From IMG/VR virus record IMGVR_UViG_2660238548_000022: a stretch of 8,402 nucleotides of DNA. One strand, 5' to 3'. A program made the position numbers. Positions 1-6,000 of the stretch are shown piece after piece. The stretch is from a virus. Its lineage: Duplodnaviria; Heunggongvirae; Uroviricota; Caudoviricetes. Every line of letters starts with the position of its first letter. Positions within the stretch are counted from its first letter, which is position 1.

Positions 1-3000
1 ATGAGCAGGGCAATTCATAGACTTAGCGACACTCTTTTACGAAAATTAAGCGGATCACCAACCACAAAAAACACCTTTTTTAATGATGGTGGCAACCTTA
101 GCGTAAGGCATTCAACCAATGGCCTGTTAACCTGGTATTTCACTTACAGGACCGGAACAGGCAGGAAGGTAGCCCCTGAACGTCTGAGGCTGGGCAATTA
201 TCCCGATCTGAGCCTGAAAGCTGCCAGGGAAAAAGCGGCACAGTGTCGCGCCTGGCTGGCTGAGGGGAAAAATCCGCGCTATGAACTTAATCATGCTGTA
301 CAGGACGCGTTAGCCCCAGTGACGGTTAAGGAAGCGCTCACTTACTGGCTTGAATCGTACGCAAAGGAAAAGCGCACTGACTACGAATCACTGAAAAGCC
401 GGATCAATAAACACATAATTAGCCAGATTGGAGCTATGCCACTGGAAAAATGCGAGCTACGCCACTGGCTGGCCTGTTTTGACCAGCTTGCTAAGCGTAA
501 TCCGGTATCAGCCGGATTTTTGCTACAGGTATGCAAACAGGCGCTTAAGTACTGCCGAAAACGACGATACGCAATCAGCAACGTTCTTGATGATATGGTT
601 GTCGGTGATGTTGGGAAAAAAGCAGAAATAAGCGAGCGCGTACTAACAAACAAGGAGCTTGGGGAATTACTACGCGCCCTTGATGAAAAAATTTACCCAC
701 CGTACTACAGCGCCCTGATTCGCCTCCTGATTGTCTTCGGATGTCGTACCACTGAGCTAAGACGCTCTGAGGTCCAGGAATGGGATTTTAAAGAAATGCT
801 CTGGACCGTGCCGAAAGAACACAGCAAAACGAAGGTAGCAATATTCAGGCCAATACCGGAAGCGATCTTGCCGTTTGTCATGAAGCTGGTGGAGCAGAAC
901 AGGCACACGGGCTTATTGCTCGGAGAACTGAAAGGGCAATCATCCGTATCAGAGTACGGAAGAACGGCACACAGACGCATTAATCAAGCCCCCTGGACGT
1001 TGCACGACATCCGGCACACGTTTACAACGATGCTGAACGATTTAGGCGTGGAACCGCACGTTGTGGAGCAGCTTACCGCGCACCAGTTGCCAGGAATGCA
1101 ACGAGTCTATAATCACTCCCGTTATCTTGATGCAAAACGTGACGCTCTTAATCTATGGGTTGAGCGCCTCGATGTGCTGGCTGGAAATCATGAAAATATT
1201 GTTATGCTGAAGGTGGCCAAATGAAATTACCTAAAAGACTCTATTATCCATTACCTGAAGCGGCAGAAAAGTTAGGCTGTGCAATAAAAGATCTTTATCA
1301 TTACGCATATATAGGCGCTCTTAATATTTCTGTATATATACCAAAAATTGATGCTAAAAAATTCAATTTTTCATTATGTCATTTTATCAATGGTTGTAAT
1401 GAGGAAGAATTAATAAAATATCCTTTCAATGATGAATCTGCTGTTTTTGGAAGTAATTTTACAGTTGGTTTAACTGGTGACACTGAATTTTTAGATAGTG
1501 CCATTATTGGTCCTGTAGGGAATCCTATCAAATGTTATTATGTTAGCAGCTTATCAGGGTTTTATTATACTCCGGCGTATGTTTTTGCTGATGTCGAATT
1601 TAGCATGAGACAATATATAAAATGTTCTCATCTTACGAATAAGTATGGTGATGATAATCTCATGTATGTTTTTTGTAAGGGTGGTTATGAATTTGATGTT
1701 GACTATTTGTGTGTGATGGCTAGTGATTTAGATAATATAAAAAATACGGGAGACTTCCCGAAGATAACAGAAGATAGCCCAAAAGCATCGTCAAAAAGGA
1801 ATGAGGTTATTTACTCTTTAATTAAACTTATTCCAGAAATGGGTGATGTAGACCTGGACACGGAATCATTACCTAAAATAGCAGATTTAATTGATTCTAT
1901 AGCTGCATCCAGAGGGATAGAATTTCCAAAAACACATTGGCAGACATGGCAAAAGTATTTGGGGCGTGAATCTCAACAAAAACGTAAAAAGTGATATCAC
2001 GTGCTGGTAGTGTGATATCACACAAACGGCGTTTTACTACCGCCTAGAATCGTCCTCGTTCGGCAACGTTCGAGGACGTTTTTTTATGAATCAAAATACA
2101 CAATTTCAATCACTATCAGATCGCGTAATCCGTGAGGATGAATGCCGTAAGTTAACAGGAGTGTGCCGCACTACACGCTACGAACTGGAGAAAAAAGGGC
2201 GCTTTCCGTCACGTCTTAATCTGGGCGGTCGTTCTGTAGGGTGGCTGCTGTCCGAGGTTATGGAATGGGTTAAAAGCCGGGATCGCATTAATTCAGGTAA
2301 GGCAGCGTAGGGGGAACATATGACACATAAAACAAAGGCGACCTGTGGCGGTCGCCAATGGGAAAACACTAAACATAAGCCAGAACATCATAGCGATTTG
2401 CTGTCTGGTGGGCAATGTGCTCAGTGTGCTGGCTTGCTGGTGGGCTATTCCTGCTCTTTGGCCTTGCGGCGCTGGCGGCGTTTGATTTCGCCTTTAACGG
2501 CAGTAACTATAAATTGCGCTTTGCTTTCACCTTCATCTAAATTTTTTTCTAAGTCTGCAACAACATCATGCGGGAATCTGGCATTTAACTGTTGCGACTT
2601 ATTATTTGTTGAACCTGTTGCCATTACTGAATCCTCTCTAAGTTGGTGCGATTCAGTATACACAAAAAAAATTCAGAGAAAAGGCTTGAAGTGCGATTCA
2701 CTTGCTGATAGGTTAAAAACAGATGGTGCGATGCACCAAATGACAACGCCCCGCAGTGGTGGCACACATGCAGGGCGTCTAACAACCAACGATAGCAACA
2801 GTATCGAGGTAGCTATGTTAAATCATACCACACACCCGCAAGGGCGGGACTCGCACAACCTGAATAAATACATCTGGCGTTTTATCGCCCTGAGCACGGC
2901 ACAGCCGCGCGTGATTACCATCGAGGCCACCAGCGAACAGGAAGCACGCCAGCAATCCCCAGTTGGCTGCGTGATGGTATTCGCGGCCCGTATTCGTCAG

Positions 3001-6000
3001 GGGGTGCGTCATGCTTAAAACCTTCCGCGTTTTTTCCCGTGCTGTTAACAAGCGCGGCTATACCGTTGGCATCACGCAGAACGTGAAGGCCGTTAATATG
3101 CAAGCGGCGATTGATTCAGTAATCAGTAATTCCGGTAAAGCAGGTTTATCACATGTAATTATTGCAGCAGTACATGAATTAAAAGGGGGGGCATTAATGA
3201 AGGAAATTACATTACACGAAGCCGCTGAACGTGCGCACCAGACAGAAATTATTTGCCGACTTCTTGAGGTGTACCCTAATAAATTAAATGATGGTGATAT
3301 ATCCGCATTAGCTGGCCTTCTGGCAAAACTTTCTGGAAGTGTTGCGCTGTGGTTAATTGATGAGAGATTTAAACGCTATGAACAATAACAAACGCGTAAT
3401 TTGCGAATTGAATGAACTCACACAAAGCGCAATATCTTACAACAATGCCGTAAGTGAGATTATTAACGTCTGGTTTGAATCGCTGACAAATTGCGAGCGT
3501 GACGAGTCAACGACAAGATTAACCTTTGCCATTTCTGAATTACTGAATATTTCCACCAGCAAAATAGAGAGCATATCAGAGAAGATTAACGGCTTATCAG
3601 GTCACGCTATCGGAGAATAAAAATAATGAAACTTAAATATTCTGGCTTAACTGCCAGCGGCAAAACTCGCACTAAATTCATGTGCGGGGATATTTACCGC
3701 GATAAGTACGGCGGCACGGTAATGATTAAGGGCGTGGAGGAACGGCGCGTAACTTACCGCCGTGAAGGCTACGAATATGATTGCGTTATGCCTGTTTATC
3801 AGTTCAACCGTGATTTTTCTCTGGTACAGGCAGCGCCCCGCAGTAAGCCAACCAGCAGGGAGAAAGCACGCGCCAATATTCAGGAAATAAAAAAGATGCT
3901 TAACGTATTCAGGGGTAAAAAATGAAACTGGCACCGAACGTAAAAAAACAGCCACGCGGAATAAAACACAAAGACACAGAGGTGATTATTTTCGCGGGTA
4001 GTGATGCGTGGGCACATGCAAAACAGTGGCAGGAGCAGGACGGCCCCGCATCCGGCGATAATGTGCCTCCTGTGTGGCTTGGGCCAAATCAGCTTGCCGA
4101 ACTTTATGCACTGCAAATTGTTCCTGATGGAAAAAAACGCGTAAGGCTGTACCAGGCAGGAGAACTGGACTTGGTGGAGACCAAAAAGATTGGTCAGAAG
4201 CTGGCGGCGGCAGGCGTACAGGATGCAAAATTTTACCCCGAAGGAATGCACGGTCAGAAGTGTGAAAACTGGCGGCGCTATCTGAATGCTGAGCGTGAAA
4301 ATATTGCCGCAGGGCTTACCATGCCGGAGCAGAAAAATACGCAACTGGCACAAATGGCAGACAGTGAGCGCGCCCAGCTGCTTGCCGATCGCTTTGATGG
4401 CGTTTGCGTACATCCTGAAAGTGAAATCGTTCACGTATGGCGCGGCGGGGTATGGTGTCCGGTCAGCACAATGGAACTTAGCCGCGAAATGGTGGCGATC
4501 TATTCAGAGCACAGGGCCACTTTCAGCAAGCGCGTAATCAATAACGCCGTGGAAGCGTTAAAAGTTATTGCCGAACCAATGGGCGAGCCGTCCTGCGATT
4601 TGCTGCCGTTCGCCAATGGTGCGCTTGACCTGAAAACGGGGGAATTTTCCCCGCACACGCCGGAGAACTGGATCACCACGCACAACGGCATTGAGTACAC
4701 GCCACCAGCACCTGGGGAGAACATTCGCGACAACGCGCCAAACTTTCACAAATGGCTTGATCACGCAGCCGGAAAAGACCCGCGCAAGATGATGCGTATA
4801 TGTGCCGCGCTGTACATGATTATGGCGAACCGGTACGACTGGCAGATGTTTATTGAGGCCACCGGAGACGGCGGTAGCGGTAAAAGTACATTCACGCACA
4901 TAGCCAGCCTTCTGGCAGGGAAACAGAACACGGTAAGCGCTGAAATGACATCGCTTGATGATGCTGGTGGACGTGCGCAGGTTGTCGGGAGTCGTCTTAT
5001 CGTCCTGGCTGACCAACCGAAATATACAGGCGAAGGAACGGGCATCAAGAAAATCACGGGCGGCGACCCCGTCGAAATTAACCCGAAATATGAGAAGCGA
5101 TTCACGACGGTAATAAGGGCGGTGGTACTGGCGACCAACAACAACCCGATGATATTCACCGAGCGGGCCGGAGGTGTGTCACGTCGTCGGGTTATTTTCC
5201 GGTTCGACAACATTGTAAGGGAGGACGAAAAAGACAAGGATTTGCCGGAGAAGGTCGCGGCTGAAATCCCCGTAATTATACGCCGCTTGCTGGCTAATTT
5301 TGCCGACCCTGAAAAGGCACGGGCTTTACTCCTGGAACAGCGCGATGGTGATGAAGCACTGGCGATAAAGCAACAGACAGATCCGGTTATTGAGTTTTGC
5401 CAGTTCCTGAATTTTCTGGAGGAAGCACGCGGCCTGATGATGGGTGGCGGTGGCGATTCCGTGAAGTACACGACCAGAAACAGCCTTTACCGCGTCTATC
5501 TGGCGTTTATGGCATACGCAGGAAGAAGCAAGCCGCTAAACGTGGCTGAGTTCAGCAAGGCCATGAAGCCAGCGGCAAAAGTTTACGGACATGAATATAT
5601 TACGCGGAGAGTTAAGGGAGTAACGCAGACCAACGCAATTACAACTGATGATTGCGACGCGTTTTTATAATTTTAGACAAAAGCCATCTACCTCTTCTAC
5701 CTAAAGAAAATAAATATACATTATTCAATATGATAAGTGGGTAGAGGGGCAGGTAGAAGGCAAATAAAAGCCCTCTACACCCTCCACCATGATTAAGGTC
5801 GTTTGTGAGGGGCGGGTAGAGGATGGGTAGAGGGCCACGAAAGCCCTCTACCCATCTGAAAGCCGCGCCATTACTGACCTGAAAGATGATTGGGTAGAGA
5901 GGTAGAGGAGGTGCACCACAACCTAAAACTTTTTAAACACGAGGGTAAAAATAAAAATGCACACATCAGGAAAATTGAACAATCAGAAGAAACCACATAA

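Follow-up and report, generated by a model that had tools for sequence, protein, structure and literature searches.

The 8,402-nucleotide virus record IMGVR_UViG_2660238548_000022 of the IMG/VR database (hereafter the window) appears to contain a whole Gram-negative phage-inducible chromosomal island (PICI) and not a P4-like satellite. Five small genes at 2815-3925 and the primase gene that follows them probably form the early operon of this island, serving regulation and replication, as one translationally linked series under the putative control of a repressor and an antisense RNA. As far as can be judged from the sequence, this is a known kind of Escherichia coli PICI operon, most closely related to the operon of CP-933C/OI-51 that carries rgdR. 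More tentatively, it is proposed that this PICI family may not be controlled by AlpA alone: a YlcI/YnfO-family repressor with three operators and a ~77-nucleotide (nt) antisense RNA could silence the Icd-like gene that opens the operon and, via translational coupling, the primase.

The assignment to Gram-negative PICIs rests on int, alpA and the primase-replicase gene lying in the same orientation, on a size within ~8-15 kb, and on the presence of packaging-related genes together with the absence of lysis and tail genes. The only gene in the opposite orientation within the window is the divergent ylcI. An island of 97% identity is found in E. coli O157:H7 genomes between cspD/yljB and clpS, and the segment has matches in 2058 of 5426 complete E. 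coli genomes, where as many as 7 copies can be present in one genome.

Small genes and their probable coupling to the primase

The original prediction described four small, translationally coupled open reading frames (ORFs) of unknown function upstream of the primase, each with a Shine-Dalgarno (SD) sequence and none with an assignable motif. The reading frames are present as described at 2815-3018, 3011-3388, 3357/3378-3620 and 3626-3925, and so are the overlaps between stop and start codons at 3011-3018 (ATGCTTAA, joining the first gene to the second) and 3922-3925 (ATGA). Matches to PHROG families at 1e-25 to 1e-46 and ratios of nonsynonymous to synonymous substitution rates (dN/dS) of 0.12-0.45 against diverged homologues indicate that these are real genes, kept by purifying selection, rather than chance ORFs; in order along the operon, the ratios are 0.12-0.42, ~0.2, 0.23-0.35, ~0.25 and 0.13-0.45. 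The number of genes had to be corrected to five, the 125-residue ORF being an in-frame fusion of two small-gene families. SD sequences accompany the starts at 2815, 3011 and 3626, as well as the internal start at 3197, and duplex energies range from -6.6 to -11.2 kcal/mol at these four positions and at 3922; the ORF at 3378-3620 lacks one: the value at its start is -2.9 kcal/mol, the background averaging -2.5. Motifs could be assigned at both ends of the series, since the first ORF matches NF033153 (3e-19) and the last matches PF13973/DUF4222 (1.5e-24). The latter is a member of the RgdR family, and RgdR has been described as regulating genes of the host for virulence and motility. Pfam and NCBIfam searches returned nothing for the three middle proteins, and sequence searches of the PDB nothing for the Icd-like, 63-residue and 80-residue proteins. 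The matches of a BFVD fold search were uncharacterised small barrels only. The last gene of the coupled series is the primase/replicase gene (3922-5670, plus strand), with D5_N and DUF5906 domains (PF08706 at 3e-16, PF19263 at 3.5e-10) and a match to phrog_864 at 3e-169.

The first gene (2815-3018, plus strand) encodes an Icd-like protein of 67 residues that matches NF033153 with 68.7 bits (E = 3.2e-19), the cut-off being 25, and phrog_6196 at 8e-46. The C-terminus of P4 eta/kil (the old "cI ORF") matches the same NCBIfam model at 7.8e-21 and, like the window protein, phrog_1743, and P1 Icd can be aligned with both the Icd-like protein and the P4 Eta/Kil C-terminus, giving the common core WRF...TE.EAR...F.AR. 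A tblastn search of phage genomes with the Icd-like query gave one match, P1 and P4 being undetected at this sensitivity. By family, gene 1 thus belongs with P1 Icd and with the Kil part of P4 Eta. The annotation of P1 Icd is that of a cell-division inhibitor required for ant expression, and PMC10111431 describes P4 Kil as a truncated, cell-killing form of Eta. Of the two starts originally considered for this gene, it is 2815 and not 2731 that holds, since the upstream frame contains stop codons in homologues and 2731 has no SD sequence. The in-frame stretch upstream of 2815 is unrelated between alleles and contains the predicted promoter and the leader; the transcript is predicted to start ~11 nt from ATG 2731. 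By analogy with P4 eta/kil, ATG 2731 and ATG 2740 were considered as starts of a longer, nested form of the Icd-like protein and rejected because of the stops in homologues and the lack of an SD sequence; in addition, ATG 2740 is lost in O157, and both codons lie at or before the predicted transcript start.

The last small gene (3626-3925, plus strand) encodes a 99-residue protein of the RgdR family (DUF4222; PF13973), and its stop codon overlaps the primase start in the ATGA mentioned above. It is identical at 93 of 99 residues (94%) to the CP-933C/OI-51 product annotated as "prophage regulator RgdR" and is a near-identical paralogue of RgdR. The published activities cover ECs1581 and C1493 only: RgdR (ECs1581) activates the LEE1 promoter (LEE, locus of enterocyte effacement) as well as type III secretion, acts as a repressor of motility, and shows non-specific DNA binding (PMC3378721). 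The rgdR gene is reportedly encoded by all analysed E. coli PICIs (PMC6092414). An AlphaFold2 model of the window protein, with a predicted local distance difference test score (pLDDT) of ~90 in its core, shows a Tudor/SH3-like barrel and a basic helix, and in structure comparison this fold is similar to the Tudor domain at the C-terminus of the helicases UvrD and PcrA.

The arrangement of these genes was compared across 80 IMG/VR loci with a primase at least 88% identical to that of the window, together with annotated E. coli genomes; a scan of genome contigs with the primase gave only 3 loci. In the related islands the Icd-like gene is always the first after the divergent ylcI, and in essentially all loci long enough to include it, an RgdR-family gene is located at -296 or -284 relative to the start of the replicase. 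The spacing between the Icd-like and RgdR genes ranges from ~0.2 to >2 kb. The three middle genes of the window occur in a minority of loci only, and at this place other islands have small ORFs of other kinds, or one to two additional Icd-like paralogues; the cassette of middle genes varies from island to island. RgdR and the replicase keep their 4-nt overlap whether the latter is a D5_N primase, DUF927, a RepA-family helicase or a P4-family primase, which argues that RgdR is part of the operon design and not of one replicase.

As a separate observation, the additional Icd-like paralogues of the variable cassette (one or two per island) were seen in loci L013, L014, L025, L033 and L084 (e.g. 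L025 3048-3135), where each is preceded by an Rfam C4 RNA, and sometimes by isrK too, as in P4. The C4 loop sequences in those related PICIs co-vary with nearby target sites.

The position of the small genes had originally been likened to that of the P4 operon upstream of the alpha primase, and the small proteins taken for plausible helper-interference or immunity factors. The parallel holds for gene 1, in its family, its first position and the primase at the end of the operon: the P4 left operon also contains an Icd-like sequence, the Eta/Kil C-terminus, and ends with a related primase (phrog_864). It does not extend to epsilon, orf151 and cnr, which have no counterparts in the window. That the small proteins act on the helper phage, in the manner of those P4 products, is therefore considered unlikely. 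P4 epsilon, orf151 and cnr/ORF106 fall into different PHROGs and show no homology to any protein of the window, and the PADLOC defence models gave no match for any small protein. P4 has the CI RNA, whereas no C4/CI or isrK RNA is present in the window: an Rfam search of both strands at E <= 1 returned two chance snoRNA-like matches only, and RF01695, RF01394 and RF03163 had no match in the window at E <= 1 or at the gathering score, with P4 and five related PICIs positive. The C4 and isrK models gave no match in CP-933C either. Furthermore, the sole characterised relative among the small proteins, RgdR, acts on host promoters, and deletions of c1499 and c1500 in EcCICFT073, two genes whose positions are not established, left transfer unchanged (PMC6092414).

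Alternatively, the small proteins, chiefly the RgdR-like one, could be accessory factors of the replicase, such as loaders or origin-binding partners, and the effects on LEE and motility would then be side effects of DNA binding. The constant overlap of the RgdR gene with the replicase start codon, the non-specific DNA binding of RgdR (PMC3378721) and the resemblance of its fold to the Tudor domain of UvrD/PcrA all agree with such a role. It is nevertheless judged quite improbable, as RgdR precedes four unrelated replicase families, which argues against a specific protein partner, and RgdR alone in trans alters host gene expression (PMC3378721).

In the window, the variable cassette begins with the 125-residue ORF. 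Its first half (3011-3196, plus strand) is a gene unit of ~58-61 residues, without its own stop in the window, in which residues 1-58 match phrog_3672 (profile length 61). The second half (3197-3388, plus strand) is a helical unit of 63 residues with its own strong SD sequence (-11.2 kcal/mol) and ATG; residues 63-124 of the ORF match phrog_1478 (profile length 63) at 4e-33. The two units are fused through a length-variable run of seven G at 3185-3191 (plus strand), which doubles as the SD sequence of the next gene; the junction reads AAAGGGGGGGCATTAATG. Variants with 5, 6, 7, 8, 9 and 11 G have identical flanks and were counted on contigs by exact-sequence look-ups. With six G, the first unit ends in K-G-G-H-stop, the stop overlapping the next ATG (TAATG), and this 61-residue product occurs on 717 contigs. 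The G8 product of 78 residues occurs on 556 contigs, the G9 product of 62 residues on 233, the fused G7 product of the window on 65, the G11 product on 5 and the G5 product on 1; the separate downstream protein of 63 residues is present on at least 1000. A word-indexed protein search with the 125-residue ORF returned 12 proteins and missed the common 61- and 63-residue forms.

Other islands have the non-slippery GAGGTG or GAGGAG at the position of the G run and two separate genes, and a tblastn search of phage genomes with the 63-residue half found it in seven Klebsiella temperate phages, as separate small ORFs. The AlphaFold model of the fusion comprises an N-terminal beta-beta-alpha-beta domain (pLDDT ~80), a linker (<50) and a poorly defined two-helix C-terminal half, which fits two independent units. 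The 125-residue ORF is thus two genes, joined because a mutable G run has changed by one base, and the run itself could be slippage-prone or phase-variable.

For the third of the originally predicted ORFs, the start is ATG 3378 (80 residues) and not TTG 3357 (87 residues). ATG 3378 is kept in diverged homologues and ATG 3360 is lost; the 80-residue form was found on at least 1000 contigs, and the 86-residue form from ATG 3360, the nearest recorded alternative to the TTG-3357 reading, on 3. The resulting gene (3378-3620, plus strand) encodes a helical protein that matches phrog_5796 at 5e-34 and overlaps the preceding gene by 11 nt, which suggests that its translation depends on coupling.

It is quite unlikely that the 125- and 80-residue ORFs are decaying passengers and the fusion a pseudogenising frameshift, as might be supposed from the pseudogene label given by PGAP to the first half in an O157 genome with the identical G7 junction, from the out-of-frame G-run lengths on hundreds of contigs and from the absence of the three middle genes from most related islands, since comparison with homologues at dS values up to ~1 gives a dN/dS of 0.2-0.35, the frame changes affect no more than the final few residues of the first protein, a strong SD sequence and ATG of its own are retained by the second gene, and homologues persist in temperate phages.

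Predicted control of the operon

A promoter of the operon is predicted, by consensus, at 2685-2713 on the plus strand (TTGAAG at 2685-2690, a 17-nt spacer and TAGGTT at 2708-2713). In an alignment of 32 distinct leaders, the -35 element is conserved as TTGAC/A, along with the -10 element; the promoter scan tool made no call at 2685-2713. Three operator-like direct repeats within 2646-2735 (plus strand), GTGCGATTCA at 2646-2655 and 2691-2700 and GTGCGATGCA at 2726-2735, bracket and overlap the divergent promoters. The repeat has 4 matches in the window against 0.55 expected, and none of 200 shuffles reached 4. This ~10-nt repeat differs between alleles and is alike at all three places within an allele.

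The divergent gene (2445-2624, minus strand, with the start following that given by PGAP in L001) encodes a 59-residue protein of the YlcI/YnfO family (NF041551 at 2.3e-17), a candidate allele-specific repressor. Clustering of YlcI/YnfO proteins at 90% identity gave 14 clusters, most of which have their own operator 10-mer; for three of the 14, the automatic repeat search gave no clear repeat or a mixed result. The variable residues sit in the N-terminal QLNARFP, which shows a weak, in-register alignment to the strand of P22 Arc that reads DNA (hhalign, probability 26%), and the protein looks ribbon-helix-helix-like. From the co-variation of YlcI alleles with operator 10-mers, we infer that the YlcI/YnfO protein represses both the operon and its own gene. 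The literature searched contained nothing relevant on the function of YlcI/YnfO, and the 2018 PICI paper leaves the existence of a repressor open (PMC6092414). A 232-residue open frame at 2320-3018, running opposite ylcI into the Icd-like gene, spans the promoter and leader and is regarded as an artefact, not a gene.

Every leader type contains a GC-rich hairpin downstream of the promoter, followed by CTAACCA. In the window this hairpin lies at 2746-2778 and is read as a leftward intrinsic terminator, being followed by TGTCATTTGG on the minus strand. In 31 of 34 distinct alleles the minus-strand RNA of the hairpin has the more stable fold (mean -20.2 versus -16.1 kcal/mol, Wilcoxon p = 7e-6), and among 22 aligned alleles canonical pairs occupy 99.6% of the pair cells when the minus strand is read and 87.0% when the plus strand is. 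In 30 hairpin cells a G.U pair on the minus strand would be C.A on the plus strand, and two hairpin pairs show compensatory exchanges (AU<->CG or GC<->CG). The minus strand 3' of the hairpin has 5-8 T per ten bases in most alleles, and the scan tool calls the homologous CP-933C site a minus-strand terminator. This strand-specific evidence indicates that a leftward transcript would end at the 2746-2778 hairpin. A role as a plus-strand element, either nut/boxB-like or an attenuator, was rejected as the principal interpretation, there being no U-tract on the plus strand and the G.U pairs being valid only on the minus strand.

CP-933C has a further, plus-strand hairpin of terminator type, with a T-run, within the first 25 codons of its Icd-like gene (L088 5880-5900), which is absent from the leader type of the window. 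Translation of the Icd-like gene could be required for read-through of this hairpin, which would then act as an attenuator.

The minus-strand terminator, combined with a -10-like hexamer upstream of it on the same strand, leads to the prediction of a cis-antisense RNA of ~77 nt (~2815 to ~2738, minus strand) over the Icd-like ribosome-binding site, which would cover both the SD sequence (2806-2809) and the start codon. The hexamer is part of the extended -10 sequence TGTGG-TATGAT, the reverse complement of 2822-2832, with no clear -35 element. On the minus strand, all five leader types have TATGAT, TATAAT or TATGCT at a distance of 4-10 nt ahead of the complement of the Icd-like start codon. 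A second hairpin (2790-2806), which the predicted RNA would include along with the terminator, has invariant stems and a 7-nt loop that occurs in 8 variants, a pattern typical of antisense recognition loops. The literature searched yielded nothing relevant on small RNAs or transcripts at this locus, and the predicted antisense RNA and the repressor-operator set, found neither in Rfam nor in that literature, may be new.

Proposed working of the operon and known parallels

In Gram-negative PICIs the helper phage switches on AlpA, which activates the downstream genes, as shown for EcCICFT073 (Fillol-Salom et al. 2018, PMC6092414). For the island of the window, it is proposed that in the quiescent state the YlcI-like protein would sit on its operators and hold off the operon promoter (~2685-2713), while the antisense RNA, transcribed from a promoter within the first Icd-like codons, would block the Icd-like ribosome-binding site on transcripts that escape. 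Induction by a helper would lead to AlpA expression and to transcription of the operon. Ribosomes would start at 2815 and be passed on via the 8-nt overlap, the TAATG or the fusion, the 11-nt overlap, a 5-nt gap and the 4-nt overlap. The Icd-like protein would then arrest host division and RgdR would act on DNA or on RNA polymerase, and the ATGA stop/start would hand the ribosomes to the primase, which would replicate the island.

Several points weigh against this scheme. Its functional steps are carried over from relatives. The antisense promoter is a -10-like hexamer inside a coding sequence, whose conservation could be explained by constraint on the protein. Pfam searches with YlcI and PDB searches with a YlcI profile gave no ribbon-helix-helix match. 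The Tudor/SH3 fold is very common, so that the link of RgdR to RNA polymerase is a lead only. The related loci are mostly from E. coli and share ancestry, so that the allele counts do not represent independent events. Finally, the window protein of the RgdR family has C20-G21-D22 and lacks the RGD tripeptide at residues 20-22, and the natural ED1a variant with CGD neither activated type III secretion nor bound DNA (PMC3378721). The window protein has C20, A10, K27 and R45 in common with this inactive variant but keeps K35, and the single R20C change in ECs1581 left its activity intact (PMC3378721); its activity on host genes is consequently not predictable.

The proposed early operon can be compared with several known systems, the nearest being the islands CP-933C/OI-51 and EcCICFT073. 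That of CP-933C/OI-51 (O157:H7) has the same order, namely Icd-like gene, genes for 61, 63 and 80 residues, RgdR, and then a replicase with the ATGA overlap. Its DNA is ~86% identical to the window over 2977-3925, with the RgdR proteins 94% identical, and its leader follows the same design of hairpin plus CTAACCA. In contrast to the window, CP-933C has a DUF927 replicase, no ylcI annotated at the equivalent place, separate genes for the 61- and 63-residue proteins, an RgdR with RGD instead of CGD, and a full capsid, protease and portal module.

The immI region of P1 (c4 RNA, icd, ant1/2) resembles the operon of the window in opening with a gene of the Icd family whose stop overlaps the next start, by 4 nt in icd/ant1. 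An RNA regulator is aimed at the Icd-family ribosome-binding site in both, that of the window being only predicted. P1, however, uses the trans-acting C4 RNA encoded on the same strand, whereas the window is without C4 and a cis-antisense RNA is predicted in its place; the downstream genes are unrelated, an antirepressor in P1 and the small ORFs plus primase in the window. In P22 immI (mnt, Pant, arc, sar, ant), a divergent small repressor, whose operator overlaps the operon promoter, is combined with the ~70-nt sar antisense RNA, which covers an internal ribosome-binding site. The target of sar is the antirepressor gene (ant) and not an Icd-like gene, and the likeness of P22 immI to the window is one of design only, with no homology beyond the weak Arc-like N-terminus.

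Neighbouring genes and significance

The window begins at the ATG of int (1-1224) and ends with the stop of the capsid-like gene, so that the attachment (att) sites fall outside it. Overlapping the int stop is an ORF of 257 residues (1221-1994) with a GC content of 31-35% against ~48% around it, and with no family in Pfam, PHROGs or NCBIfam. It occupies the slot between int and alpA, where PICIs hold accessory genes, and was found in 2 of ~84 related loci; its N-terminus is helix-turn-helix-like (PADLOC mad1, a weak match at 0.015). The palindrome GTGATATCAC occurs in two perfect copies, 21 nt apart (1991-2000 and 2012-2021), just upstream of alpA (2086-2310; PF05930 at 2e-16), and the pair resembles an operator for whatever controls alpA.

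Downstream of the primase, three small ORFs are followed by a terS-like gene (6711-7316) and an HK97-type capsid-like gene (7479-8402). These two close the island and are likely to form the module with which this PICI type redirects packaging and determines capsid size. The functions of P4 sid, delta and psu could be assigned to no ORF of the window, which has the terS-like and capsid-like genes instead.

PICIs of this type are present in more than one third of complete E. coli genomes, and RgdR-family genes affect how virulence genes are expressed in enterohaemorrhagic E. coli. The finding of RgdR as the fixed last gene of an operon led by an Icd-like, toxin-type gene, and that of a candidate repressor and a predicted antisense RNA in the same operon, frame the question of what use RgdR is to the island, and are relevant to the way in which co-resident islands avoid cross-talk. 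The variable G run, whose length affects the products of two genes, offers a simple marker, one that could be tracked in outbreak lineages.

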